From Candidatus Spyradocola sp. (GTDB lineage Bacteria > Bacillota > Clostridia > Christensenellales > UBA1750), in NCBI GenBank assembly GCA_034113365.1, contig JAXEXP010000034.1, positions 11,345-75,344 of the forward strand: a DNA stretch of 64,000 nucleotides. The letters run 5' to 3'. The stretch's first letter is position 1; every line of letters starts with the position of its first letter. This document shows positions 2,182 through 57,053 of the stretch, one piece after another. The position numbers and the translations under genes are program-made. The notes beneath the pieces were generated by a model, which saw only the letters and a program-made list of their open reading frames with translations, searched no databases and was not told where the DNA came from.

Positions 2182-2343
2182 TATACTGCAAATGAAGGAA
2201 TCAAATCAAAAAGCAAACGTTATGACACCCGTTCTCGCATTTTTGATTTCTTCATTATCAAAATCGTGATTATTGGCATACTTCGCATCCGCCGCGCATA
2301 TATCGTATTGTATACATATAATTTTTACAAAGGAGGAGTTCTT

Positions 2344-3243
2344 GTGAAGCTGCACATTCAACACCGCCTGTCCGAGGCCAGTGTGACCTGGGGCGACTTT
2401 CTGCGCCTGGGCACCATTTCGCACCTGCAGCTGCAGGACGAATCCTTTGCCTATACGCTGCGCGCACAGCCGGAGTATCTGCTGCTCTACCTGCCCGAGG
2501 GCGACCTCTACCTGGTGCGCAACCGCGCCGAGTCCACCTACACTGCGGGCAGCATGGTGCTGCTTCCGCCCGAGGAGGAGTATCACCTGCACTTTCCCGG
2601 CCCGGCGCGCACCTCCGCATGGTGGATCAGCTTTTCGGGCTACAGCGTCACGCGCCTACTGACGGATTCCGGCCTGAGCAGCCGCCCCGTGTTCCAGCTG
2701 CCGCCCGAGGCCGAGCTCTCCTATCATTTTGACGGCATCCTGCGCCTGTCCATGCCCTCCTCGGCGGACCCGCGCTGTGTGGCGCTGGGCTGCATGGGGC
2801 TGTTTCTGCAGCTGCTGGCCGCCGTGATGCCCTACACCCAGCAGCAGCGCCGCGCCGAGCCCGCCTTGGCAAGACCCCGCGCGGGCACGGGCCGCACCAA
2901 GGCCACCGACCTTGCCGTGCAGCAGATCCAGAGCGACCTTGCCGCGCCGCTCAACGTCGAGCAGCTCGCCCACAGCCTGCAGCTGAGCCCCTCGCACTTC
3001 ATCCGCTGCTTCAAGGCGCAGATGGGCTATTCCCCGCTGGCCTACCAGACGCGCCTGCGCATGGAGCGCGCCAAGGACCTGCTGCGCGGCACCACGCTGC
3101 GCGTCAGCGAGATCGCCGCCAAGGTGGGCTACCAGAACCCCATGTACTTTTCCTCCACCTTCAAAAAGCACGCCGGCATGACGCCGCTGGAGTACCGCGA
3201 GCGCTTCCTCTCTCCCTCGCGCGAGAGCATGCAGCTGCTTTAA
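2344..3243 (+). CDS. AraC-family transcriptional regulator (cupin-like N-domain plus C-terminal HTH)
   Basis: GTG at 2344 follows AGGAGG with a 7-nt spacer. The C-terminal 100 aa show the AraC HTH signature (LAHSLQLSPSHFIRCFKAQMGYSPLAYQTRLRMERAKDLL...GYQNPMYFSSTFKKHAGMTPLEYR). Confidence 0.85.
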   Translation: MKLHIQHRLSEASVTWGDFLRLGTISHLQLQDESFAYTLRAQPEYLLLYLPEGDLYLVRNRAESTYTAGSMVLLPPEEEYHLHFPGPARTSAWWISFSGYSVTRLLTDSGLSSRPVFQLPPEAELSYHFDGILRLSMPSSADPRCVALGCMGLFLQLLAAVMPYTQQQRRAEPALARPRAGTGRTKATDLAVQQIQSDLAAPLNVEQLAHSLQLSPSHFIRCFKAQMGYSPLAYQTRLRMERAKDLLRGTTLRVSEIAAKVGYQNPMYFSSTFKKHAGMTPLEYRERFLSPSRESMQLL

Positions 3244-3344
3244 GCCCCGCGCCGGCAGGATAAACGCGCCGCCCCGTCGAATGATATAGCCACAAGCACA
3301 TTGCGGCTTTTTTGCTGCTGACATACAGAAAAGGAGAGATGCAC

Positions 3345-5345
3345 ATGGCCCTGTTTGTCAACGATCATGGCGTTCTCAAATGCCGTTTTCTGGGCGAAAA
3401 CCTCTGGCTGCTGCCCTGGGGCAAGGACGCGCTGCGCGTGGTGTCCCGGCCCATGAGCGAGCCCGAGCTGCCCGCCTGGGCGCTGCTCGAGCCGCAGCAC
3501 ACCGATTCCCTCATCGAGATCACCGAGCGCTGCGCCACCATCGCCGTGGGCAAGATCAGCGCCGTCGTGCGCCGCATGGACTGGCCCGACCGCCTCGAGA
3601 TCACCTACTACAACCAGCGCGGCGAGGTGCTGCTGGCCGAGCGCCCCGGCACCGGCGCGCTCAACATCCAGCCCCGCTTCTTCAAGCCCATCGTCGCGGG
3701 CGATTTCAAGCTCACCGTGGGCTTTGCCGCCGACGACGACGAAAAGCTCTACGGCATGGGCCAGTACCAGCAGGACGTGCTCAACGTCAAATACTCCACC
3801 TTTGAGCTTGCGCAGCGCAACTCGCAGGCCAGCGTGCCCTTCGTGCTGTCCAGCAAGGGCTACGGCTTCCTGTGGCACAACCCCGCCATCGGCCGCGCCT
3901 GCTTTGGCAAGAACCTGATGGAGTGGGTGGCTGACAGCACCAAGCAGATGGACTACTGGATCTGCGCGGGCGACACCCCCGCCCAGATCGAGGCCGCCTA
4001 CGCCGATGCGGTGGGCCACGCCCCCGCCATGCCCGAGTACGGCCTGGGCTTCTGGCAGTGCAAGCTGCGCTACTGGAACCAGGAGCAGCTGCTCTCCGTC
4101 GCGCGCGAGTATCACCGCCGCGGAATCCCGGTGGACGTGATCGTGGTGGACTTCTTCCACTGGCCGCACATGGGCGACTTCCGCTTTGACGAGGAGTTCT
4201 GGCCCGACCCCAAGGCCATGGTGCGCGAGCTGCACGAGATGGGCATGGAGCTGATGGTCTCCGTCTGGCCGCAGATCTCGCTGCTGTCCGAGAACTACAA
4301 GGAAATGGACGAGGAGGGCTACATCGCAAGATGCGACAAGGGCATGAACTGCCAGATGCGCTTTGTCAACGAGGACGCGATGTTCTTTGACGCCACCAAC
4401 CCCCACGCCCGCAAGTACCTGTGGAGCAAGATCAAAAAGAACTACTACGACAGCGGCATCAAGGTGTTCTGGCTGGACGAGGCCGAGCCCGAGTACGGCA
4501 CCTACGACTTTGACAACTACCGCTACTATTCCGGCACCGTCGCCCAGACGGGCAACCTCTACCCCCAGTGCTACGCCCGCACCTTCTACGACGGCCAGAA
4601 GGCCGAGGGGCAGGACAAGGTGGTCAACCTGCTGCGCTGCGCGTGGGCAGGCTCCGCCAGATACGGCGCGCTGGTCTGGTCGGGCGACATCCATTCCGAC
4701 TTTGCCACGCTGCGCCGCCAGGTGTGCGCGGGCCTCAACATGGGCATCGCGGGCATCCCGTGGTGGACGACGGACATCGGCGGCTTCAACGGCGGCGACC
4801 CCACCGACCCCGCCTTCCGCGAGCTGATCGTGCGTTGGTTCCAGTGGGGCCTGTTCTGCCCCGTGATGCGCCTGCACGGCAACCGCGTGCCCGACGAGCG
4901 CGTGTTCCGCGCGGACGGCACCGAGTGCCTGCCCTCCGGCGCGGCCAACGAGATCTGGTCCTTCGGCGACGAGGCCTACGAGATCATCAAGAACCTCATC
5001 GACTTCCGCGAGACCATGCGCCCCTACACCCGCGCCCTGATGGAGCAGGCCTCCCTGGCCGGCGCGCCCGTGATGCGCACCATGTTCTTTGAGTTCCCCG
5101 ACCAGCCCGCGTGCTGGGAGCTGCGCGACCAGTACATGTTCGGCCCCGACGTGCTCGTCGCCCCCGTGCTCGACGCCGGCGCCGCCACCCGCACCGTCTA
5201 CCTCCCCGCAGGCGCCGACTGGACGGACCTCCACACCGGCGAAACCTTCTCCGGCGGGCGCACCGTCACCTGCGACACGCCGCTTCAGACCATCCCCGTG
5301 TTCCTCAAGGACCACACCCATCCCGACTGGATCGGCAAGATCTGA
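3345..5345 (+). CDS. Glycoside hydrolase family 31 (alpha-xylosidase/alpha-glucosidase-like), no signal peptide
   Basis: GH31-type motifs are present: GIPVDVIVVDFFHW, KVFWLDEAEPE, WSGDIHSDF, RWFQWGLFCPVMRLHG. The ATG at 3345 was chosen from the MHMALF options because of the upstream AAGGAG. The start could instead be 3339. Confidence 0.88.
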   Translation: MALFVNDHGVLKCRFLGENLWLLPWGKDALRVVSRPMSEPELPAWALLEPQHTDSLIEITERCATIAVGKISAVVRRMDWPDRLEITYYNQRGEVLLAERPGTGALNIQPRFFKPIVAGDFKLTVGFAADDDEKLYGMGQYQQDVLNVKYSTFELAQRNSQASVPFVLSSKGYGFLWHNPAIGRACFGKNLMEWVADSTKQMDYWICAGDTPAQIEAAYADAVGHAPAMPEYGLGFWQCKLRYWNQEQLLSVAREYHRRGIPVDVIVVDFFHWPHMGDFRFDEEFWPDPKAMVRELHEMGMELMVSVWPQISLLSENYKEMDEEGYIARCDKGMNCQMRFVNEDAMFFDATNPHARKYLWSKIKKNYYDSGIKVFWLDEAEPEYGTYDFDNYRYYSGTVAQTGNLYPQCYARTFYDGQKAEGQDKVVNLLRCAWAGSARYGALVWSGDIHSDFATLRRQVCAGLNMGIAGIPWWTTDIGGFNGGDPTDPAFRELIVRWFQWGLFCPVMRLHGNRVPDERVFRADGTECLPSGAANEIWSFGDEAYEIIKNLIDFRETMRPYTRALMEQASLAGAPVMRTMFFEFPDQPACWELRDQYMFGPDVLVAPVLDAGAATRTVYLPAGADWTDLHTGETFSGGRTVTCDTPLQTIPVFLKDHTHPDWIGKI

Positions 5346-5358
5346 TTTAGCACAAAAA

Positions 5359-5402
5359 GCCCCCGCAGCGCGGAGCCTTCCATGCTGCGGGGGCAATTTT
5401 TC
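5359..5402. terminator. Bidirectional intrinsic terminator between convergent GH31 and oxidoreductase genes
   Basis: An 11-bp GC-rich stem, gcccccgcagc ... gctgcgggggc, is followed by aattttttcg on the plus strand and preceded by an A-run that supplies the U-run for the minus strand. Confidence 0.8.
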
Positions 5403-5419
5403 GTCTATTTCGGCGAAAA

Positions 5420-6526
5420 TCAATCCAGTATGCCGTGGATGGGGTTGTTGTACATGGGCGCGCTGCGCTCGTAGTGCGTGGTCAGCTCGATGTAGCGGTT
5501 CTGCTCGCTGGCCTTCTCAAAGCCCGTCATGATCTCCAGCGCGTGCAGCGTCTGCTTGTAGCTGGCGCGGAAGTCGCGGCCGTCGGTCAGCGCCTTGGCC
5601 ATGTCCGCCAGACCCAGCGCGCGGCTGTTTTCCTTGTAGTCGAACAGCAGCGGCATGTCCATCACCTCGCCCTGCTCGGGGCGCAGCAGCTTGATGGGTC
5701 CGCCGAAGGTGTTGGGGTCGGGGCAGATCAGCGTGCCCTTGGTGCCGTAGATCTCCAGGCGCGCCTGGCCCTGGTTGTAGACGTCAAAGGTGGTAAAGAT
5801 GGTACCCACCGCGCCGCAGTCAAAGTCCATGATGCCCGTGACATAGGTGGGCACGTCCACGGTGATGTCGGTGCCGCGCTTGGGCGCGCTGGTGATGGTG
5901 CGGTGCTCGAAGGTGCGCTTGGTGCGCCCCATCAGGCCCTTGACGCCGCCCAGCAGGTTGATCAGCGCCGTCACATAGTAGGGCCCCATGTCCAGCATCG
6001 GGCCGCCGCCGCGCTTGTAGTAGAACTCGGGGTCGGGATGCCAGCCCTCGTGCCCGCGGCAGATCATGAACGCCGCGCCGCCCACCGGGTCGCCGATGAA
6101 CCCGTCGTCGATGAGCTTGCGGCAGGTCTGGATGCCCGCGCCCAGGAAGGTGTCGGGCGCGCCGCCCAGCAGCAGGCCCTTGCTCTGCGCCAGCTCCACC
6201 AGCTCCTTGCCCAGCTCAAAGGTGGCCGCCAGCGGCTTTTCCGAGTAGACGTGCTTGCCGGCCTCCAGCGCGGGGCGGGTCACGCCGTAGTGCTCGTCGG
6301 GCCGGGTCAGGTTGAGTATGATGTCCACCTGAGGATCGTTGAAGGCCTCGTACATGTCGGCGTAGACGTGCGGCACATGCCACTTTTCCGCGGCCTTTTC
6401 CGCCTTCTCGCGCACCAGGTCGCACACGCCCACCAGCTCGATCTCGTGGAAGGTCTCGGTGATGTTCTTCAGATAGATCCCGCTGATGTCGCCCGTGCCG
6501 ATCATCGCGATCTTGACAGTCTTCAT
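5420..6526 (-). CDS. Gfo/Idh/MocA-family NAD(P)-dependent oxidoreductase
   Basis: N-terminal Rossmann motif MKTVKIAMIGTGDISGIYLKN, an EKPLA motif (YSEKPLAATF) and the typical C-terminal alpha/beta domain. The gene lies 26 nt downstream of the ThuA gene. Confidence 0.9.
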   Translation of the reverse strand: MKTVKIAMIGTGDISGIYLKNITETFHEIELVGVCDLVREKAEKAAEKWHVPHVYADMYEAFNDPQVDIILNLTRPDEHYGVTRPALEAGKHVYSEKPLAATFELGKELVELAQSKGLLLGGAPDTFLGAGIQTCRKLIDDGFIGDPVGGAAFMICRGHEGWHPDPEFYYKRGGGPMLDMGPYYVTALINLLGGVKGLMGRTKRTFEHRTITSAPKRGTDITVDVPTYVTGIMDFDCGAVGTIFTTFDVYNQGQARLEIYGTKGTLICPDPNTFGGPIKLLRPEQGEVMDMPLLFDYKENSRALGLADMAKALTDGRDFRASYKQTLHALEIMTGFEKASEQNRYIELTTHYERSAPMYNNPIHGILD

Positions 6527-6552
6527 TGGCTTTATCTCCTTTTTTGCGCGTT

Positions 6553-7281
6553 TTAGTACATCTTTGCGGTGTTCTCGAACCGCTCGGTGGTAAGCCCGTG
6601 CTTAACGGCGTACTCCTTGCCCTGCGCCGCCCACAGCATGCCGCGCTCCATCAGCGCCTCGGCGTTGGGCGACTTTTCAAACACGTCGTCGTGATGGCCC
6701 AGCGAGTTGTAGAACACGCGGCCGTTGCCCCAGAACTTGGTCCACGCCACCGGCATGTCCACCGGCTTGTTGGAGATGTGGTAGTAGGGCACGATGGGGA
6801 AGCGCGTGGTGGCCAGCACCTCAATGGAGGGGTCCACGTGCAGGTAGTAGTGCTCGGAGCAGACGTGGAAGTCCTCCAGCCCCTCCACGATGGGCGAGGA
6901 GCCGTGCCGGATGTTGACGGTGTAGTCGATGCCGTCTCCGCCGGGGTGCGACACCCACTGCCCGCCGGTGATGAACTGCCACTCCGTGTCGTTGCGGAAG
7001 GAGTCGCACATGCCGCCGTGGCAGCCCGCAAGACCCACGCCCGCGCCCACCGCCTTGGACACGTTCTGCACATACTCGTGCTTGATCTCGCCCATCGTCC
7101 AGCACGCCACGATCAGATCCAGCTTCTTGAGCGCCTCCGCGTCCGCAAGCACGTCCAAAGTGTCCGCGATCTCGCAGGTGTACCCGTGCTTTTCCATCAG
7201 CCGCGCAAAGCGCTTCGAGGTCAGCTGCGGCTCGTGTCCGTCCCAGCCGCCCTGCACGATCAATACCTTCTTTTCGGTCAT
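6553..7281 (-). CDS. ThuA-domain protein (trehalose-utilisation-like, class-I glutamine amidotransferase-like fold)
   Basis: VLIVQGGWDGHEP near the N-terminus, then GQWVSHPG and RVFYNSLGH. These are typical ThuA-family blocks. The gene is paired with a Gfo/Idh/MocA gene, as in ThuA/ThuB loci. Confidence 0.8.
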   Translation of the reverse strand: MTEKKVLIVQGGWDGHEPQLTSKRFARLMEKHGYTCEIADTLDVLADAEALKKLDLIVACWTMGEIKHEYVQNVSKAVGAGVGLAGCHGGMCDSFRNDTEWQFITGGQWVSHPGGDGIDYTVNIRHGSSPIVEGLEDFHVCSEHYYLHVDPSIEVLATTRFPIVPYYHISNKPVDMPVAWTKFWGNGRVFYNSLGHHDDVFEKSPNAEALMERGMLWAAQGKEYAVKHGLTTERFENTAKMY

Positions 7282-7411
7282 CGCAAAAAGCCTCCCATAT
7301 ATTTGATTTTGTGGTTGGATTCTGCTTGTAGGATAGCACAGTCTGTGTTAAAATTCCTGTCAGAAACGCAATGCAAAACTCCCATTTATTGCGGTTTGCC
7401 GGAGGTAGCCC

Positions 7412-8197
7412 ATGTTCGTACAGTACGAGGACCGCGCCTTCCCCTACAGCGCCAGCGTCAACGACGATCTGACGTTCCTGCTCCATCTGCACCGCCAGGC
7501 CGAGCTGATCTATGTGCTGGACGGCTGTATCGAGATGACGGTGGACGCCCACACCCAGCTGCTGCACGCGGGCGAGCTGGGCTGCGCCTTCCCCAACTGC
7601 GCCCACAGCTACCTGACGCGCACCCACAGCCGCGTGGTGATGGTGATCTTCGACGCGCCTTACGCGGGCGACTGCGCGGGCACGCTGCTCACCCAGCGCG
7701 CGGTGTTTCCCTACCTTGCCGCCTCCGACGTCGACGAGGACGTGCGCTACCTCGCGCCCAAGCTCACCCGCCCCATGGACACGCGCCTGCTCAAGGGCTA
7801 CCTGCAGGTGATCTGCGCGCGCCTGTTCGAGCGCCTGCGCCTCGAGCCGCGCCGCGCCGCCGACGACAGCGACTGGACGCACCGCGCGCTGACCTACCTA
7901 AACGAGCACTTCACCGAGGACATCTCCCTCGACGACCTCGCCCGCCACTTAAGCATCAGCAAATACCACCTCAGCCGCACCTTTCCCGAAAAGATCGGCT
8001 GCGGCCTCAACGCCTACCTGCACTCTCTGCGCGCCGACCACGCCGCCCAGCTGCTCGCCTCCACCGACCTTTCCGTCACCCAGGCGGGCTTTGACAGCGG
8101 CTTTTCCTCGGCCTCCACGTTCTTCCGCGTGTTCCAGGCCCAGTACGGCCTCAGCCCCCGCGCCTACCGCGCCGCCCGCCGCGCCCAGGGCCAGTGA
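7412..8197 (+). CDS. AraC-family transcriptional regulator (cupin N-domain plus HTH)
   Basis: C-terminal HTH blocks LARHLSISKYHLSRTFPEKIGCGLNAYLHSLRADHAAQLL and GFDSGFSSASTFFRVFQAQYGLSPRAYR. The gene is divergent from the ThuA operon. Confidence 0.85.
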   Translation: MFVQYEDRAFPYSASVNDDLTFLLHLHRQAELIYVLDGCIEMTVDAHTQLLHAGELGCAFPNCAHSYLTRTHSRVVMVIFDAPYAGDCAGTLLTQRAVFPYLAASDVDEDVRYLAPKLTRPMDTRLLKGYLQVICARLFERLRLEPRRAADDSDWTHRALTYLNEHFTEDISLDDLARHLSISKYHLSRTFPEKIGCGLNAYLHSLRADHAAQLLASTDLSVTQAGFDSGFSSASTFFRVFQAQYGLSPRAYRAARRAQGQ

Positions 8198-29267: not shown

Positions 29268-30818
29268 TTATGCCCCGAACGCATCAAAATCCGCCGCATC
29301 CGCCCCCGAAAACGCCTCGTTTACGGGCCTGTCCAGCACCAGTTTGACCACCGAAACGAGGGTGTTTTCCGCCTGATTTTCCACCCGAACGGCGCGCATT
29401 TCCCCCTGCTTTGCAAGCGTGACGCGGCCTCCGGTGAGGCACTGCGCGCTGCGCACGGCATACCCGCCCGCGGGCAGGCGGAACCCCTTCCGCTCCTCCC
29501 CGAGAAGCAGCGCATAGAGCGCATCGCCCCTCCAGGTGAAGCCGCCGCGGTCCATGTCGTTGCGCAAAGGGCCGCCGTTCGTGTCGTAGATGGCCTCGCC
29601 ATAGCGCTCCAACCAGCGGCCCACCGCAAGCAGGCATTGGGCATGCGCCGGGTCTATGGAGCCGTCGGGGCGGGGACTGACGTTGAGCAGCAGGTTGCCG
29701 CCGCCCGTCACCACGCGCGTGAGCAGGGCCAGCACCTCCTCGGGGCTGCGCAGGCGGCCGTCCGGCGTCCAACCCCAGGTCTCCGACAGCGTGTCGCAGG
29801 TCTCCCAGGGGTGCTGCGGGTCGAACGCGCCCACAACGCGCTCGGGCGTGGTGTAGTCGCCGCAGCGGCGCATGCCCAGGCGGTTGTTGACGACGATGCC
29901 GGGCTGGGCCTCGCGCACCATCGCGTCCAGCTCGGCTTCGCCCCAGAAATCCTCCACAATGGGGCGCTGCATCCAGCCCTCGGGCTGCATCCGCGCGGGG
30001 TCGAGCTGCTGCAGGTCGCAGCCGTGCGCCAGCCAGAAGTCCTCGCCGCCGTCGTACCACAGGATGTCGATGGGGCCATAGCCCGTGACCAGCTCGCGCA
30101 CCTGTTCATGGCACTGCGAACGCATGGCAAGCGCGCTGCGGCGGTACATCTTCGGGTGGAAGAAGCCCTCGCAGCGCCAGTCCATGGGCGAATAGTACAG
30201 GCCCGTCCACAGCCCGGCCGCGCGGCAGCCCTGCACGTAGTCGCGCACCAGGTCGCGCCCGGCGGCTGCCTGCATCACGGTGAAATCGCCGATGGAATGC
30301 GCGCTGTCAAACAGGCAGAAGCCGTCGTGGTGGCGGGTGGTGAGCACCATGTACTTCATGCCCGCGTCCCGGGCCAGCTGCGCAAGCGCGGCGCCGTCGA
30401 AGCGCTGCGCGGTGAGCTGCGCGGCAAGCCGTGCGTAGTCATCCTTGTCGATGGGCTCGTTGAACATGGCCCACTCGCCGCGGCCCAGCACGGAATACAG
30501 GCCGTAGTGCAGGAACATGCCGAACTTCAGACCGCGCCACTGCTCGACCCTCGTCTCTTTTCTCATGGGATGGGTCCCTCCTTTGCCATAGGAGCCGCGC
30601 ATGGCGCACAGGCGGGCGTCCTGACTGCCGCCCAGCAGCTCCTGCGGCGGGCAGTCCAGCGCTGCAGCCAGGCGCTCCACCGTCTGCAGGTCGGGCACGA
30701 CGCGCCCCGTCTCCCACTTGCTGACCGCCTGCTTGGAGACGAACAGCGCGCGCCCCAGCGCAGCCTGCGTCATCCCGCGCGCCCTGCGCCTCTGCCGGAT
30801 CCTCTGCCCAATGTCCAT
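29268..30818 (-). CDS. XRE-family HTH domain fused in frame to a GH29 alpha-L-fucosidase (the fucosidase may also start internally at 30566)
   Basis: The N-terminal 70 aa, MDIGQRIRQRRRARGMTQAALGRALFVSKQAVSKWETGRVVPDLQTVERLAAAL, form a Cro/C1-type HTH. From residue ~85 GH29 blocks appear: LKFGMFLHYGLYSV, GEW, KYMVLTTRHHDGFCLFDS, IDILWYDGG. An internal ATG (30566) is preceded by AAAGGAGGG. Confidence 0.75.
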   Translation of the reverse strand: MDIGQRIRQRRRARGMTQAALGRALFVSKQAVSKWETGRVVPDLQTVERLAAALDCPPQELLGGSQDARLCAMRGSYGKGGTHPMRKETRVEQWRGLKFGMFLHYGLYSVLGRGEWAMFNEPIDKDDYARLAAQLTAQRFDGAALAQLARDAGMKYMVLTTRHHDGFCLFDSAHSIGDFTVMQAAAGRDLVRDYVQGCRAAGLWTGLYYSPMDWRCEGFFHPKMYRRSALAMRSQCHEQVRELVTGYGPIDILWYDGGEDFWLAHGCDLQQLDPARMQPEGWMQRPIVEDFWGEAELDAMVREAQPGIVVNNRLGMRRCGDYTTPERVVGAFDPQHPWETCDTLSETWGWTPDGRLRSPEEVLALLTRVVTGGGNLLLNVSPRPDGSIDPAHAQCLLAVGRWLERYGEAIYDTNGGPLRNDMDRGGFTWRGDALYALLLGEERKGFRLPAGGYAVRSAQCLTGGRVTLAKQGEMRAVRVENQAENTLVSVVKLVLDRPVNEAFSGADAADFDAFGA

Positions 30819-30920
30819 GCCGTTCACGCTCCCTTTATCCCTAGCGTACCGTGCGGCGGCGGCGCTGTCAAGCCCGGGAAGGTCTCCCGTTGGTTGACCG
30901 CATTTTCTCCCGCAGCGCGG

Positions 30921-30950
30921 CACAAAAAAGCCCGGGGGATTCCGGGCTTT
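30921..30950 (-). terminator. Intrinsic terminator after the C39-like peptidase gene
   Basis: Minus strand: AAAGCCCGG AATCC CCCGGGCTTT followed by TTTTGTG. Confidence 0.75.
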
Positions 30951-44694: not shown

Positions 44695-44793
44695 CGGGGG
44701 ATCGCCTCCTTTTCTTCAGTATACAGCAGGAACTGCGACAGCGGGGCGTCGCAGTTCCCTAAATAGGTAATGTTCATGTGGATGGTTTGATTC

Positions 44794-44860
44794 GGTGCGT
44801 CTGGGGCGGACTGACACCTCATCAGTCGCTGCGGCGACAGCTTCCCCTCAAGGGGAAGCC
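44794..44860 (-). repeat. Copy R2 of the three-hairpin intergenic repeat (3' of the GRE gene)
   Basis: Plus strand: GGTG-17nt-CACC tcatca GTCGC-tgcg-GCGAC ag CTTCCCC-tcaa-GGGGAAG cc. Confidence 0.8.
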
Positions 44861-44915
44861 TGAGGATGTCTGCCGTTATTGTTTGCGTGAGACAGCTCCT
44901 GCCATATGCGCCTTT

Positions 44916-46943
44916 TTACACGCCGTAGGTGGTGCGGCGGATGATCTGATCCTGATAGGCCTTATCCAGCTGGACGAAGTGGCCGCTCCAGCCCCAGACG
45001 CGCACGATCAGGCCGCGGTGCTGCTCGGGGTGCAGCTGCGCGTCGATCAGCTTATCGCGCGAGACGGCGTTGAGCTGCAGCTGGTGGCCGCCCAGCAGGT
45101 TGAAGGAGCGCACGAGCTGCGCCACCTTCTCCAGGCCCTCGGGGTGGGCAAACACGGTGTCGTGCATCTCCAGCGTCAGCGGGCCGCCATTGATGGTGCG
45201 GGACAGCGACGGGCGCGCCATGGCCGAGACGACGGACAGGGGGCCTGCGTCGCGCAGCGTGAGCGAGGGGGAGAAATTGGCGGAGAGGGGCTCGCCGGCT
45301 CTACGGCCGTCGTAGGTCGCGCCGAGGGAATCGGCGTGCCAGAGGTAGTACATCGCGGAGCCGGTGCCCGCGCGGAAGATGCCGCCCCGCTCGTTGCGAA
45401 GCGGCGCGACGGCGTCGGCAAAGGCGTTGAGCAGCGCGTCGGCGAGGGGCTCGCATTCCTCGTCGCGGCCCAGCTTGGGCGCGGTCTCGCGCAGGGCGTG
45501 CAGCAGCTCGGGCGCGTCGGCGAAGTCTGCGGCGACGGCGGCCTTGAGCGCGGCGGGGGCGATGGATTTTTCCTCATAGACCAGCTTGCGGACGGCGGCG
45601 AGCTGATCCACCGCGGTGGCGGTGCCGGTGCCGTGCAGGCCGTAGTTGTTGTAGGTCGCGCCGAGGGAGATATCGCGGCCGAGGCGGACGCTGTCGGACA
45701 TGAGCACGCTCTGGTAGGGGGCGGGCTCCATGAACAGGTTTTTGACGCCGTCGGCGACGGCGGCAGCTTCGCTTGCGATGTTCTCGCGGACGCGCTGCAT
45801 CAAATGGTCGAAGTCCGCGCAGGCGTCCAGCTCCTCGTCCAGCGTGCGCTTGACGACGCCGGCGAGAGAGACTGCGCCGATGTTGGGGATGTCCATGCCG
45901 GTGCCGGGGATGATGAACTCCCAGCAGGCGGCCACGACGTAGTTGCGGGCGTCCTCGGGCGCATAGCCGAGGTTGATGAGCGCGGGGATGACGACGTCGT
46001 CGTTGGCGTACTGCGGGAAGCCCAGGCCCTGGCGGGTGAGCTCGGTGGCCTTGCGGTAGAGCGCCATCGGGGTGTTTTTGTCCACGCGCAGGTTGATCTT
46101 GGGGTCGATGCGGCGGTTGGCAAGGCTGGCCTCCAGGCAGAGGTAGGTCAGGTCGTTGACGGCGCTGTTGCCCTGGCGGTCGCAGCCGCCCAGCATCAGG
46201 CTCTGGCCGTTGTCGCCCTGCTGCATGCCGATGTACAGGTCGCTGTCGCGGTTGAAGGAGAGGAAGAAGTCCTCCAGCAGCTCCAGCGCGGCCTCGCGGG
46301 TGAGAACGCCCGCGGCGACGTCCTTTTCATAGTAGGGGAGCATGTACTGGTCGAAGCGGCCGACGGTATTGTGATAGACGTTGCTCGCCCACAGGCAGAA
46401 GTGCAGCAGGCGGAAGGTCTTGAGCGCGGCGGCAAAGTCGTGCGCGCCGTTACGGACGGCGTCGGAGAGCGCGGCGTCCTCATAGCGGTCGGCATAGGCA
46501 AGGACGGCGTCGATGACGGTGACGGCGGCGCGGTTGAAGTCGGGATCGCCTACGTTTTCCGCGAGATTGCGCTGCGCCTGCTCGCGGCGGGGCATGAGGC
46601 CGCCCTGCAGCACGCCCTTCCAGTCGGAGGAGATGTTGCACACGCGCCCCTGCTCGTGGACGTAGTGGCCGGCGGTGAGTTTTTCCTTCTCGCCGGGGGC
46701 GTAGAGGTCGGGGAAGGCGGGCAGCGTACGCCAGCAGGGGATGGCCGTCCCCTCGCAGCGGATGATGCGCTCCTCCTGCAAAAAGAGCTGCAGGCGCAGC
46801 GCGGCGCGGGTGACGAGCGGCAGCTGCGGGTTCTGGATGCGCGCGGCGAGCTCGGCCCAGCGTTCGTCGGAGAGGGGCTGCCGCCATTGATGATGCGCCT
46901 GCCGGTTCAGCATGTCCCGCAGGACGTCCAGTTTTGCACTCAT
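44916..46943 (-). CDS. Glycyl-radical enzyme, short atypical PFL-fold protein (675 aa), substrate unknown
   Basis: C-terminal glycyl-radical domain GGHQLQLNAVSRDKLIDAQLHPEQHRGLIVRVWGWSGHFVQLDKAYQDQIIRRT and Cys loop NYVVAACWEFIIPG. The start overlaps the activase stop (ATGA). Confidence 0.85.
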   Translation of the reverse strand: MSAKLDVLRDMLNRQAHHQWRQPLSDERWAELAARIQNPQLPLVTRAALRLQLFLQEERIIRCEGTAIPCWRTLPAFPDLYAPGEKEKLTAGHYVHEQGRVCNISSDWKGVLQGGLMPRREQAQRNLAENVGDPDFNRAAVTVIDAVLAYADRYEDAALSDAVRNGAHDFAAALKTFRLLHFCLWASNVYHNTVGRFDQYMLPYYEKDVAAGVLTREAALELLEDFFLSFNRDSDLYIGMQQGDNGQSLMLGGCDRQGNSAVNDLTYLCLEASLANRRIDPKINLRVDKNTPMALYRKATELTRQGLGFPQYANDDVVIPALINLGYAPEDARNYVVAACWEFIIPGTGMDIPNIGAVSLAGVVKRTLDEELDACADFDHLMQRVRENIASEAAAVADGVKNLFMEPAPYQSVLMSDSVRLGRDISLGATYNNYGLHGTGTATAVDQLAAVRKLVYEEKSIAPAALKAAVAADFADAPELLHALRETAPKLGRDEECEPLADALLNAFADAVAPLRNERGGIFRAGTGSAMYYLWHADSLGATYDGRRAGEPLSANFSPSLTLRDAGPLSVVSAMARPSLSRTINGGPLTLEMHDTVFAHPEGLEKVAQLVRSFNLLGGHQLQLNAVSRDKLIDAQLHPEQHRGLIVRVWGWSGHFVQLDKAYQDQIIRRTTYGV

Positions 46944-47782
46944 CTTACCATGACCTCCATATTGAGCTCCTCGAAGGGAGCGGTGTAGACGTTGGGTTCG
47001 CGCTCGGTGTCAAACTGCGGATCGTAGCGCATGGACAGGCCGTCGTACTTGGCGCCGGCCGCGCGGTTGTAGCGCAGCAGCTCCACGCGCTGAAGGGCTT
47101 TGGCGTCCCGGGCGAGCTGCGCGGTGGCGCGCAGGTTGTCGGGCGTGTCGTTGACGCCGGGGATGAGGGGGATGCGCAGTATGAAGGGGATGCCGGAGCT
47201 GCACAGCCAGCGGAAATTGCGCAGGATCAGCGCATTGTCCACGCCCGTCCAGCGGCGGTGCTGCTCGGGGTCGGTGTGCTTGACGTCCATCATGACCAGA
47301 TCCATGCTGCGGCAGAGGGATTGGAAGGTCTCCTCGGGGCCGTGGCCGCAGGTCTCGATGGCGGCGTGGACGTCGGGGAGCAGCGCGCGGATCTGCTGCA
47401 CGAACTCGGCCTGCAGCAGCACCTCGCCGCCGGAGAACGTGACGCCGCCGCCGCTCATGCGCAGCAGGCGCGCGTTCCTGCGCACGCGGGCGGCGACCTG
47501 CTCGGCGGTCATTTCCTGCCCGGCGATGCGGATGCAGCCCTGTGGGCAGACGGGCACGCACGCGCCGCAGGCGACGCAGCCCTCCGGGTGGGGGCAGACG
47601 CGCTCGCACGCGCCGCAGTGCACGCACAGCGCGCGGCTGACGCTCCGCTGCGGGCGAACGGACAGCCCCTCGGGGTTGTGGCACCACCGGCAGCGCAGCG
47701 GGCAGCCCTTGAGGAACACCGCGGTGCGGATGCCCGGTCCGTCGTATACGGCGAACTCCTCGATGTCAAACACGATGCCCAT
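46940..47782 (-). CDS. Glycyl-radical enzyme activating protein (radical SAM)
   Basis: GCPLRCRWCHNPE (CX3CX2C) plus two ferredoxin-type clusters, CVHCGACERVCP and CVACGACVPVCP. GGGVTFSGGE follows. Confidence 0.9.
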   Translation of the reverse strand: MGIVFDIEEFAVYDGPGIRTAVFLKGCPLRCRWCHNPEGLSVRPQRSVSRALCVHCGACERVCPHPEGCVACGACVPVCPQGCIRIAGQEMTAEQVAARVRRNARLLRMSGGGVTFSGGEVLLQAEFVQQIRALLPDVHAAIETCGHGPEETFQSLCRSMDLVMMDVKHTDPEQHRRWTGVDNALILRNFRWLCSSGIPFILRIPLIPGVNDTPDNLRATAQLARDAKALQRVELLRYNRAAGAKYDGLSMRYDPQFDTEREPNVYTAPFEELNMEVMVR

Positions 47783-47884
47783 AATTTCTAATACCCCGTT
47801 TTTTCCATTTTCAACCTTACTGTTTTATATGTACCCTATATTACGAGTCTTGTCAAGGTGATTTTGTGCGCAAAGGGTTATGTT

Positions 47885-47945
47885 GGTGCTGGACGGACAC
47901 CTCATCAGTCGCCTGCGGGCGACAGCTTCCCCTCAAGGGGAAGCC
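47885..47945 (-). repeat. Copy R3 of the three-hairpin intergenic repeat (between the oxidoreductase terminator and the activase gene)
   Basis: Plus strand: GGTG-9nt-CACC tcatca GTCGCC-tgcg-GGCGAC ag CTTCCCC-tcaa-GGGGAAG cc. Confidence 0.8.
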
Positions 47946-47971: not shown

Positions 47972-48005
47972 AGCTAAAAAAGGGAGGCACGGCGGCCTCC
48001 CTTTT
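47972..48005 (-). terminator. Intrinsic terminator of the Gfo/Idh/MocA gene
   Basis: Minus strand: AAAAGGGAGGC CGCCGT GCCTCCCTTTT followed by TTAGCTG, giving a run of six U in total. It starts 15 nt past the stop. Confidence 0.8.
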
Positions 48006-48019
48006 GCTGTTATTTGGGT

Positions 48020-49000
48020 TTAGAACTTGACTTCGCGGCGCTCGCGGTCGGCGATGTAGGCGTTCTCCATCAGCGCGGTGAGCATGCGGCCCTCCTGCAC
48101 GCCGTAGCGCACGGGGCCGCCGTAGAGGATGGCCTCGACCCACTGGCGGGTGGGGTGGGGCAAGGCTTCGGGCAGCTTGGGCACGACCCAGCCGTCGGCC
48201 AGGTGCTTCTGGGTGTCCAGGGTCTTGATCTTGATGTCGTTATCGATGGCCAGGATCACGCCCTTGGTGCCGTAGACCTCGAAGATCTGGGGGCACATGG
48301 GCGAGACGAGCGAGGTCTCGGACACGGCGATGGCGCCGTTCTCGAACTCGATGGTGGAGATGGTGTTGTCCTCGACGGCGTGGCCGGTCTTGTTGTTGAA
48401 CATGGACTGGATGCGCGTGGGGTTGCCCAGCATCCACGCGGACAGGTACATAGGATGCGCGCCCAGGTCCATCATCGCGCCGCCGCCGGTGGTCTCGGGG
48501 TCGTACCAGTAGTCGGGCAGCCAGCCGGCCAGCGCGCCGTCGTGGCAGTTGCGGCAGCGCAGCACGGTCACGTCGCCCACCAGGCCGGACTCGATGGCCT
48601 GCTTGATGTAGAGGAACTTCGGCCATGCGCGCTGGGGCAGCGAGATGGTGAAAATGATGTTGTTCTCCTCGACGGCCTTGATGACCTCGTCGCAGTCGGC
48701 GACGGTCAGGCACATCACCTTCTCGGTGTAGATGTGCTTGCCTGCCTTGGCGCACTTGATCATGACGTCCTTGTGCATGTTGGTGGGGGTATCGATGCAG
48801 ACGGCATCGACGTCGGCGCGGGCGAGCAGCGTGTCGAGGTCGGCCTCGAAGTCCACGCCCATCTCATCCGCCCAGGCCTTGCCGCGGATGGGATCCTCGT
48901 CCCAGACGCAGGTGATCTTGACGTCGTCCATCTTGTTGAAATAGCCCGCGTATTCGGTCGCGTGCACATGCCATTTGCTGAGCATTGCCACATGAAGCAT
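48020..49000 (-). CDS. Gfo/Idh/MocA-family oxidoreductase
   Basis: Gfo/Idh/MocA blocks include HIYTEKVMCLT (EKP-like) and a C-terminal dimerisation domain. The N-terminus lacks a clean GxGxxG motif but the overall pattern fits the family. Confidence 0.82.
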   Translation of the reverse strand: MLHVAMLSKWHVHATEYAGYFNKMDDVKITCVWDEDPIRGKAWADEMGVDFEADLDTLLARADVDAVCIDTPTNMHKDVMIKCAKAGKHIYTEKVMCLTVADCDEVIKAVEENNIIFTISLPQRAWPKFLYIKQAIESGLVGDVTVLRCRNCHDGALAGWLPDYWYDPETTGGGAMMDLGAHPMYLSAWMLGNPTRIQSMFNNKTGHAVEDNTISTIEFENGAIAVSETSLVSPMCPQIFEVYGTKGVILAIDNDIKIKTLDTQKHLADGWVVPKLPEALPHPTRQWVEAILYGGPVRYGVQEGRMLTALMENAYIADRERREVKF

Positions 49001-56047: not shown

Positions 56048-56845
56048 TTAGTCGGCCTGAGCGAGTTTTTCCTCCGACGAAGCAATGTGCGCGCGGATGG
56101 CGGGCTCGTGGCGCTGCACGAAGTCCCAAGCAGATTCCATGAAGACCTCGGGCTGGCCGGGGGTAAAGAGACGGTGCAGGTGGTTAAGCAACGGGGCGCC
56201 GTCCAGCGTCAGGTCGTAAAAATAAGGGTAGATGCAGCCGCCGTTTTCCGGCTCGAAGTAGGGGTCGAGCGCACGGAGGGTGGGGTGGCTGAGGTAGCAT
56301 TCCACCACCATCTCGCTCAGGATCCACTTGAGGTGGGGCGTGTCGTAGTCTGCAGGGCTGTCGTGGAAGTGCTGCTGCCAGACGGAGAACCAGACGAAGT
56401 GCGTCATCTCGTGCAGCGCAATACCCATCGCGCCGCGCTCGCTGTTGCGCCAGAACACGTCGAAGGCGCGCTGGTCGAGGAAGCGGGGGCAGACGCTGTT
56501 CAGCGCGATGCGGCCCTGCATGTCGTTCAGCTGCCCGGACAGGTCGCGGCCGAACAGCTCGGAAAAGGCGTCGTTGATGCGCGGCTCATTGTCCTGCCAA
56601 TGGGTATTGTAGGCGTCGAGCTTTTGATTCAGCTCGGGCAATATGGATTCGTAGGTGGGACGCAGGGTCTGGGCGTAGTAGTCGCGGCGGGCGGGCAGGT
56701 CGAGCGCGTCGGCGCGGGACTTGTCCAGCTCGGAATAGAAATAGAACAGCGAACTGCGCCAGAACTCGCTCTGCTCGCCTGTCTCAAAGAGCATGATGCT
56801 GTCGAGCGAGTAGTCGAAGCCGGGGTTTATGTAGTGAAGGCGCAT
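56048..56845 (-). CDS. Hypothetical cytoplasmic protein with an HExxH motif (putative zinc-dependent hydrolase)
   Basis: Starts at MRLHYINPGF following GGAAAGGAG. The single HEMTH motif lies in GAMGIALHEMTHFVWF. No family recognised. Confidence 0.6.
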   Translation of the reverse strand: MRLHYINPGFDYSLDSIMLFETGEQSEFWRSSLFYFYSELDKSRADALDLPARRDYYAQTLRPTYESILPELNQKLDAYNTHWQDNEPRINDAFSELFGRDLSGQLNDMQGRIALNSVCPRFLDQRAFDVFWRNSERGAMGIALHEMTHFVWFSVWQQHFHDSPADYDTPHLKWILSEMVVECYLSHPTLRALDPYFEPENGGCIYPYFYDLTLDGAPLLNHLHRLFTPGQPEVFMESAWDFVQRHEPAIRAHIASSEEKLAQAD

Positions 56846-56870
56846 GAAAGCTCCTTTCCGGGGGAGTGCG

Positions 56871-57053
56871 GGTGACGGACACCTCATCAGTCGCCTGCGG
56901 GCGACAGCTTCCCACTCCGCACCGAATCAGCCGTTCCGGCTGCTCCGGTGTTCCGGTCGGCTTATTCGGAATAAACAGTCCACAGGACTGTTTATTCCGA
57001 AACGCTCGACCTTCAGGGCTTCGCCCCTCCGGGTGAACCATCAAGGGGAAGCC
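56871..57053 (-). repeat. Copy R4 of the three-hairpin repeat, with a ~127-nt nested palindromic insertion in hairpin 2
   Basis: GGTG-5nt-CACC tcatca GTCGCC-tgcg-GGCGAC ag CTTCCC [56914..57040 insert] tcaa GGGGAAG cc. The insert contains the perfect palindrome ggaataaacagtcc-acag-ggactgtttattcc and the arms ccgaatcagccg/cggcttattcgg. Confidence 0.8.

Follow-up and report, generated by a model that had tools for sequence, protein, structure and literature searches.

A compact glycyl-radical enzyme and its activase in Candidatus Spyradocola belong to a large, uncharacterised family whose members often lie beside monosaccharide importers

We have analysed a 64,000-nucleotide stretch of Candidatus Spyradocola sp. 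(Christensenellales; contig JAXEXP010000034.1 of assembly GCA_034113365.1), hereafter the window, whose minus strand encodes a short glycyl-radical enzyme (GRE) of the pyruvate formate-lyase (PFL) fold next to a radical S-adenosylmethionine (SAM) activase. The two genes and the catalytic loops of the GRE are located as follows:

46940..47782, minus strand: GRE-activating radical-SAM enzyme (AE) of 280 aa, recognised by TIGR02494, PF04055, Fer4 and motifs in the translation
44916..46943, minus strand: short PFL-fold GRE of 675 aa, recognised by PF02901 and PF01228, an AlphaFold2 model, Foldseek and its homologues
45918..45926, minus strand: Cys loop C340-W341-E342 (CXE motif), aligned with C433/E435 of glycerol dehydratase (GD) and with the CVE of propanediol dehydratase (PD) and PflD
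44982..45002, minus strand: Gly loop R648-V-W-G651-W-S-G654, within PF01228 and aligned with RVAGYS of GD, PD and PflD

The protein is a member of the PFL-like glycyl-radical enzyme superfamily, as both domains, both loops and a dedicated activase are present. PF02901 matched residues 163-527 (profile positions 247-637 of 647, 3e-76) and PF01228 residues 556-657 (1.6e-15), each above its gathering score. The Cys loop, VVAACWEFIIPG, stands in the context VVAAC340-W-E342-FIIPG and the Gly loop, LIVRVWGWSGHF, in the context LIVRVW-G651-WSGHF. As judged by alignment of the CXE motif, C340 would be the thiyl-radical cysteine and E342 the general-base glutamate, while G651 is the predicted site of the glycyl radical. 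The AlphaFold2 model (pLDDT 88.8, pTM 0.90) superimposed in Foldseek on GD, PflD, PD, CutC, HypD and HplG with template-modelling (TM) scores of 0.80-0.85 at 20-26% identity throughout, and the enzyme therefore appears roughly equidistant from all CXE-type enzymes.

The translation of the activase gene carries the radical-SAM cluster motif CX3CX2C as C27-P-L-R-C31-R-W-C34 (CPLRCRWC), together with two ferredoxin-type CX2CX2CX3C motifs (C53xxC56xxC59xxxC63 and C69xxC72xxC75xxxC79). Families were assigned by comparing NCBIfam/TIGRFAM model scores with their curated cutoffs: the activase passed the general PFL2-type GRE-activase model TIGR02494 (275.4 bits, cutoff 174.35) and fell below the cutoff of every substrate-specific activase equivalog among the NCBIfam models, including that of BssD (163.6 bits, cutoff 496.45). 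Its stop codon overlaps the GRE start as ATGA (46943..46940). The two genes and their motifs had been read from the DNA in the original prediction, which described a GRE activase with these clusters, the ATGA overlap and a 675-aa PFL-fold protein with a glycyl-radical domain and a Cys-x-Glu loop, and each element was confirmed. G+C content at third codon positions is 0.92-0.93 in both reading frames, similar to that of the neighbouring genes, and the plus-strand open reading frame (ORF) of 736 aa that overlies the same DNA (44778..46988) is no gene but the kind of antisense shadow that high-GC DNA commonly produces.

Relatives of the GRE are numerous and uniform in size. A search of 5.8 billion proteins yielded thousands of GRE matches, the best 120 of which are all 635-687 aa long, 62-97% identical and named only generically, as 'pyruvate formate lyase family'. 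In a scan of GTDB with one genome per species, at least 523 species from several phyla encoded a relative, with identities of 58-68% in Clostridia (Christensenellales, Oscillospiraceae) and of 47-53% in Lachnospiraceae, Bacteroidales (Prolixibacteraceae, Maribellus, Paludibacter, Tannerellaceae), Spirochaetia and Brevinematales. Across 72 full-length family members (626-698 aa, median 688), 151 positions are conserved in at least 97%, including C340-W-E342 and RVWGWSG; strong conservation begins at residue 46, and the blocks YHNTxGRxDQ, QQGDNGQS, IDPKINLRV, GLGFPQY and NGGPxTxE constitute a family signature. Of 84 loci examined, 82 contain an activase gene: in 76 it immediately precedes the GRE gene, in five it follows it at once, and in L033 it lies about 490 nt upstream, while the two loci without one are both cut by a contig edge. 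The pair had initially been called an orphan, a term that suits the window and not the family, given the number of species involved and the adjacency of the activase in 81 of the 84 loci. The clade is thus a large, widespread, compact and uncharacterised GRE family, and our literature searches found no paper on it. As a separate observation, one Ruminococcaceae locus (L080, UBA3451, at about 3-12 kb) holds two activase-GRE pairs in opposite orientation within about 10 kb.

None of the established GRE families accommodates the enzyme. Its score against TIGR01774, the PFL2-3 subfamily that comprises glycerol and propanediol dehydratases, was 300.9 bits (cutoff 678.2), and scores for the HypD, PflD-type, HpfG, CutC, HpsG, IAD, HPAD and PFL equivalogs ranged from 42 to 260 bits where about 1000 or more is required, or from 148 to 260 bits with cutoffs of 1000-1150 when PFL is left aside. 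The PFL model TIGR01255 scored 41.7 bits (cutoff 994.2), A339-C340 standing in place of the Cys-Cys pair, and in the NCBIfam scan the model of the benzylsuccinate synthase large subunit had no match to the GRE. Model cutoffs and active-site residues together rule out PFL, GD/PD, HypD, CutC and the sulfonate lyases as its family. The earlier proposal that the pair is a candidate for undescribed GRE chemistry stands, having survived all three refuting conditions named with it: we found no close homologue with a known substrate, orthologues of 626-698 aa do not exceed the expected length, and the activase pairing persists among relatives. A 2026 review of the superfamily lists no GRE of about 650 aa linked to sugar transporters among the characterised PFL-like enzymes, and points to whole GRE clades still without experimental validation (PMC13450708).

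By sequence, the closest solved structures are PD (6e-71), GD (7e-70) and E. coli PflD (3e-69), with alignments that start only at about residue 165 of the query, equivalent to their residue 255 or so. With GD of C. butyricum (1R8W/1R9D) and PD of R. inulinivorans (5I2A/5I2G) the window enzyme shares a PFL-like barrel (TM 0.80-0.84), the Cys-x-Glu loop, an RVxG(aromatic)S Gly loop and an adjacent PFL2-type activase with two auxiliary clusters. It differs from them in its low identity (24-26%), in being some 110 aa shorter, with about 90 of the missing residues lying N-terminal of the first conserved barrel segment (query 162 = GD 252), and in the neighbours of its family, which are sugar transporters and include neither microcompartment nor aldehyde-handling genes. 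The N-terminal helices build the GRE dimer interface (PMC13450708). A second useful comparison is that with the 1,5-anhydrohexitol-6-phosphate C-O lyases YbiW and PflD ('GRE isomerases'; 8ID7, 8YJO, 8ID0), which have the CXE motif in common with the window enzyme and, in the case of PflD, the fold (TM 0.84-0.85). Their identity to it is 22-26%, the score against NF007437 is 257 (cutoff 1109), and a pocket-lining segment that reads GFPTGYT in PflD is QQGDNGQ in the window family. To our knowledge, YbiW and PflD are the only characterised GREs that act on sugars.

Active-site positions were compared through HMMER alignments to GD, PD and PflD, in which the GD numbering was confirmed. The GD residues H281, S282, Y339 and D447, which we take to be the glycerol contacts, are replaced in the window family by Y190, H191, G246 and N354, respectively, all of them family-invariant. 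Two further invariant residues introduce positive charge where the three reference enzymes are neutral: K282 at the place of GD S375, and R524 at the place of a Gln in GD and PD and of a Thr in PflD. PflD has Asn and Thr at these two positions, and by this residue comparison no anion site common to PflD and the window family exists there. The stretch Q241-Q-G-D-N-G-Q-S248 is polar and invariant across the family. Given the replaced GD contacts and this polar stretch, a larger polyhydroxylated ligand would fit; the alignment thus suggests a roomier and hydrogen-bond-rich pocket, possibly with an anion-binding element.

The surroundings of the relatives were compared as well. ORFs were called over 79 GTDB loci and clustered, and recurrent clusters were annotated. 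Of these loci, 32 encode a sugar transporter no more than about 7 kb from the GRE; 26 of them belong to the distant clade (42 loci) and six to the clade of the window (37 loci). Where present, the transporter is often immediately upstream and co-oriented. The typical order in Bacillota and Spirochaetes is substrate-binding protein, permease, permease, ATPase, (LacI), AE and GRE, the co-located binding proteins being of the CUT2 type, ribose-/allose-binding-like and generic. In Bacteroidales, a divergent AraC gene, a mutarotase, a protein similar to glycoside hydrolase (GH) family 36 or to GH57/38 and a sugar porter of the major facilitator superfamily (MFS) precede the AE and GRE genes, which are followed by an MDP-1-type phosphatase. 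Other recurrent neighbours are LacI (25 loci), AraC (10), aldose 1-epimerase (8), MDP-1-type sugar phosphatase (6), a FucI-like isomerase (6), FGGY kinase (5), class II ketose-bisphosphate aldolase (4) and DUF4867 (4), the last four of which recur across phyla.

Several of these genes can be found together as a recurrent, uncharacterised module. In L076, L079, L081, L055, L044, L027 and L077 we observed a FucI-like isomerase with an FGGY xylulokinase-like kinase and a class II ketose-bisphosphate aldolase, joined in some cases by DUF4867, and the isomerase module is co-located with the GRE pair in Spirochaetes, Clostridia and Bacteroidales alike. This isomerase has no Pfam match, and its sole NCBIfam match is the sulfoquinovose isomerase SftI (110 bits, cutoff 700). 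DUF4867 corresponds to the SftX family, whose largest network cluster occurs with PF02952 isomerases and FGGY kinases in non-sulfo, unassigned aldose/ketose pathways (PMC11968277). A co-located 752-aa protein is distantly alpha-galactosidase-like, and a PDB search returned no matches for a co-located 844-aa GH-like protein or for the FucI-like isomerase. On one Clostridia contig the LacI/ABC/AE-GRE operon is closely preceded, at L001:1-1344, by genes for the methanol:corrinoid methyltransferase MtaB and for a DeoC aldolase, an arrangement compatible with methanol- or deoxysugar-yielding chemistry and far from evidence for it. At the level of the family, the signal is that of an imported carbohydrate of monosaccharide size, which bears indirectly on the window gene. 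The initial remark that no neighbour hints at a substrate is accurate inside the window, while the relatives do point to an imported monosaccharide.

The GRE and its activase form an intact, chromosomally encoded pair of the oxygen-sensitive radical type. On balance we lean towards the view that the pair is functional and that the GRE would act on a carbohydrate of monosaccharide size as a radical eliminase or isomerase that cleaves a C-O bond. Every characterised GRE 1,2-eliminase and isomerase has the CXE motif, the Glu forming a hydrogen bond to a substrate hydroxyl (PMC13450708), and the radical mechanism is proposed by analogy with all CXE-type GREs; cleavage of C-O rather than C-S or C-N bonds, and the carbohydrate nature of the substrate, are what we infer. 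In such a scheme, the activase, by means of SAM and its [4Fe-4S] cluster, would remove the hydrogen on the C-alpha of Gly651, generating a stable glycyl radical that would then move to Cys340. The resulting thiyl would take a hydrogen off a carbinol carbon of the substrate while Glu342 deprotonates its hydroxyl, and the ketyl radical might expel a vicinal O-linked group: loss of water would make the reaction a dehydration, and loss of a ring or ether oxygen an isomerisation, as in YbiW/PflD. The product radical would finally regain a hydrogen from Cys340. Candidate substrates would be sugars (plain or anhydro-, deoxy- or O-substituted), sugar alcohols and phosphate esters of any of these, imported in the relatives through CUT2 ABC or sugar-porter MFS systems. 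The deoxy-keto or deoxy-aldose product could feed either into an isomerase/kinase/class II aldolase route or into central metabolism.

A bolder version, which we put forward tentatively and regard as somewhat less likely than not, is that the clade contains the first GRE to work directly on free monosaccharides as delivered by a transporter, candidates being alditols and sugars of the anhydro, deoxy or O-alkyl type, and that it breaks a C-O or, less likely, a C-S bond. The substrate of YbiW/PflD in E. coli is imported in phosphorylated form through the phosphotransferase system, whereas the importers of the window family are of the ABC or MFS type, so that its sugar would arrive unphosphorylated. 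If so, the enzyme would perform a C-O cleavage beyond the reach of non-radical anaerobic enzymes and would open a new anaerobic entry route for carbohydrates in over 500 species that belong to Clostridia, Bacteroidales and Spirochaetes and come from guts, rumen, digesters and sediments, with a trimmed N-terminal architecture that may alter the canonical GRE dimer. Each newly assigned GRE function has exposed an anaerobic pathway of ecological or medical importance, as illustrated by the route that turns choline into trimethylamine, by hydroxyproline, by the formation of H2S from isethionate and by anhydroglucitol. The clade seems a good target in this respect, since it is large, tightly conserved, multi-phylum, common in gut and rumen metagenomes, compact and repeatedly located beside monosaccharide importers; it provides a testable class of substrate and would indicate that anaerobic sugar catabolism includes a radical step so far unrecognised. 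Relatives occur in Bacterium 1XD21-13 and Spirochaetia bacterium MS499-40, with which experiments would be feasible if these are cultured strains.

Several observations weigh against a sugar substrate for the window enzyme. The pair has no adjoining transporter, kinase or aldolase in the window, and because only 6 of the 37 loci of its own clade carry a sugar transporter the link is indirect for this gene. Saccharolytic genomes are rich in sugar genes, so some of the co-localisation may be background. In addition, the predicted charges of K282 and R524 could point to a negatively charged substrate, for example a phosphate, a sulfonate or a carboxylate. The sugar link holds at the level of the family, and the interpretation offered in the original prediction is partly supported.

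Among the alternatives, a compact dehydratase of small diols (glycerol, 1,2-propanediol or ethylene glycol) would act on the C2/C3 end-products of sugar cleavage and not on the sugar itself, for instance on propanediol formed from lactaldehyde made via the isomerase/kinase/aldolase route. PD and GD are indeed the top matches in sequence and structure, the CXE motif is present, and some loci do encode a fucose-isomerase-like protein together with an FGGY kinase and an aldolase, and pathways of this type yield lactaldehyde or glycolaldehyde. Nevertheless, the identity to both dehydratases is low and the TIGR01774 score less than half the cutoff, all four GD contacts are replaced (H281 by Y, S282 by H, Y339 by G and D447 by N), genes for aldehyde dehydrogenase, alcohol dehydrogenase and microcompartment shell proteins were not seen among the conserved neighbours, and many loci consist of transporter, regulator and AE-GRE only. 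We consider a diol dehydratase unlikely.

The enzyme might instead be a C-S or C-N lyase, or handle an anionic sugar derivative, either by desulfonation of a sulfosugar or of its C3 product or by acting on a sugar phosphate like YbiW/PflD. This possibility draws on the SftI match of the co-located isomerase, on the DUF4867 neighbours, whose SftX family is known from sulfoglycolysis clusters, on the invariant K282 and R524, which could bind an anion, and on the MDP-1/HAD sugar phosphatase that follows the GRE in Bacteroidales, a position that recalls the HAD phosphatase gene ybiV, presumably located near ybiW in E. coli. Yet the SftI score is far under its cutoff, the HpsG, HpfG and IslA-type models score under the dehydratase models, and PflD lacks both cations; sulfoquinovosidase, sulfite exporter and sulfite reductase were not seen among the conserved neighbours, and the largest DUF4867 cluster belongs to non-sulfo aldose/ketose contexts (PMC11968277). 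It too has, in our opinion, a small chance of being correct, and C-O cleavage of a monosaccharide-sized carbohydrate remains the reading that we prefer.

The remaining alternatives concern the origin of the pair and its position among GREs, and the first of them involves the repeats and the other elements that surround the two genes:

48020..49000, minus strand: Gfo/Idh/MocA NAD(P) sugar oxidoreductase gene (PF01408, PF22725, PF02894), directly upstream of the activase gene
47972..48005, minus strand: hairpin resembling an intrinsic terminator, GGGAGGC-N6-GCCTCCC followed by T6, at the end of the Gfo/Idh/MocA gene
47891..47945, minus strand: repeat R3, a two-hairpin unit between the terminator and the activase gene
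44808..44860, minus strand: repeat R2, 56 nt past the GRE stop and upstream of an AlkZ-like gene
56873..56913, minus strand: the repeat core for the third time, 9 kb away, here with a 5' arm of another sequence and upstream of an unrelated gene

It had been proposed that R2 and R3 frame the two genes as a unit. Both copies are real and co-oriented, which together with a protein about 110 aa below the characterised GREs could suggest that direct repeats bound a mobile cassette of two genes, or that the GRE is what truncation has left of a longer one, but the repeats delimit nothing functionally. At least 120 unrelated metagenomic sites carry the repeat, besides the third copy in the window; no transposase or integrase was detected among the 45 window ORFs scanned with Pfam; and in L084, whose GRE is 75% identical, the gene order is the same with no repeat upstream of the activase, for which reason the repeats cannot be regarded as cassette borders. 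Truncation is rejected because the relatives share the same length, 626-698 aa without longer orthologues, and it is ruled out as well by the conservation from residue 46; taken together, cassette and remnant are very improbable. Still more remote is membership of the YjjI/YjjW short-GRE class of E. coli, an earlier suggestion that the sequences contradict. YjjI/YjjW likewise combine a shorter-than-usual putative GRE with an adjacent activase, but YjjI is a DUF3029 protein of 516 aa with no detectable similarity to the window GRE (no match to TIGR04040 at E <= 0.01; BLASTP E = 4.9) and the activase, at 31% identity with YjjW, an ordinary value for GRE activases, scores 143.6 bits against TIGR04041 (cutoff 250.2) while reaching 275.4 with TIGR02494.

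The repeat is nonetheless a well-defined element. R3 reads GGCTTCCCC-TTGA-GGGGAAGC-TGTC-[GCCCGCAGGC]-GACTGATGAGGTG, and the core GACACCTCATCAGTCGC appears three times in the window (at 44813, 47896 and 56878), with an expectation of 0.19 and none of 100 shuffles reaching three. On the gene-sense strand the unit can be written as GGCUUCCCC-UUGA-GGGGAAGC-UGUC-(variable, covarying hairpin)-GAC-UGAUGAGGUG, its 3' part after the covarying hairpin also as GACUGAUGAGGUG. A pattern that fixed the outer parts only, leaving the inner stem unconstrained, located it at no fewer than 120 metagenomic sites (L085-L204) with 71 distinct cores, on contigs whose names include human-gut metagenome assemblies. 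The inner stem covaries (50 cells changed on both sides vs 17 ± 5 in shuffles, with 0 of 500 shuffles reaching the observed value), the 5' hairpin is present in 106 of 121 repeat units, and an inverted variant lies within 120 nt in 44 of 113. R2 is identical in L083, which carries a 97% orthologue, and in L084 it is represented at the same site by a diverged variant with compensatory stem changes; its presence at one L084 site and absence from the other is compatible with insertion.

No Rfam family matched the repeat, even at E <= 10. A hammerhead ribozyme, suggested by CUGAUGAG, was discarded in view of the lack of a GAAA/stem III arrangement in any permutation, of conservation 3' of GGUG and of an Rfam match. 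A riboswitch or leader was likewise rejected: with no Rfam match, unrelated downstream genes and many inverted pairs, a dispersed element similar to repetitive extragenic palindromes (REP) or to miniature inverted-repeat transposable elements (MITE) is likelier. Like REP, REPIN and MITE repeats, the unit is about 50 nt long, hairpin-forming, intergenic, dispersed and often found in inverted pairs with compensatory stem changes; it differs from them in its invariant single-stranded CUGAUGAGGUG tail and in the absence of an associated transposase among the window ORFs scanned. R2 and R3 are accordingly copies of a dispersed REP/MITE-like element in two spacers. A variant seen at 56835-56935 (minus strand) and at L084:9680-9760 has the 5' hairpin replaced by (CACCGGA...)UUCGGUGCGGA(A/G)U. 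In the former copy, the predicted outer stem (UUCGG/CCGGAA, GGAGUG/CACUCC) adjoins the GGAAAGGAG ribosome-binding site (RBS) of the next gene, whose ORF probably starts downstream of the position listed, 56887.

The immediate neighbours of the pair are the Gfo/Idh/MocA gene and an Amidohydro_2 gene upstream and an AlkZ-like glycosylase gene downstream. The claim that a terminator at 47972..48005 separates the pair from the oxidoreductase gene was substantiated, and in L084 an analogous hairpin and T-run fills the 65-nt spacer at the same position. The best NCBIfam match of the oxidoreductase is inositol 2-dehydrogenase (111.9 bits, below the cutoff of 355), and this enzyme possibly takes part in the same pathway as the GRE. 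Synteny in L084 comprises GH2, two extra genes, the amidohydrolase, Gfo, AE, GRE and AlkZ, and the gene order of the window is partly repeated in L037. The region is chromosomal and saccharolytic in character, with gyrA/gyrB, serine hydroxymethyltransferase, ComEC, two copies of GH2, GH31, GH43, GH29, two Gfo/Idh/MocA genes and ThuA. Just upstream of the RBS of the AlkZ-like gene, at about 44720-44765 on the minus strand and at L084:9753-9800, we observed a conserved hairpin, GAACUGCGAC-N-GUCGCAGUUC, followed by UGUAUA(C/A)U, which may be a leader or regulatory structure. At 2266-8197, 37 kb from the GRE, AraC, GH31, Gfo/Idh/MocA, ThuA and a second AraC form a cluster that presumably resembles the loci of 3-keto-glycoside (ThuA/ThuB-type) sugar oxidation. 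Finally, the ORF at 29268-30923 (minus strand) joins an N-terminal Cro/C1-type helix-turn-helix (residues 38-96) to a GH29 alpha-L-fucosidase domain (124-443), and is either a fusion of an unusual kind or the product of a start call placed too far upstream.

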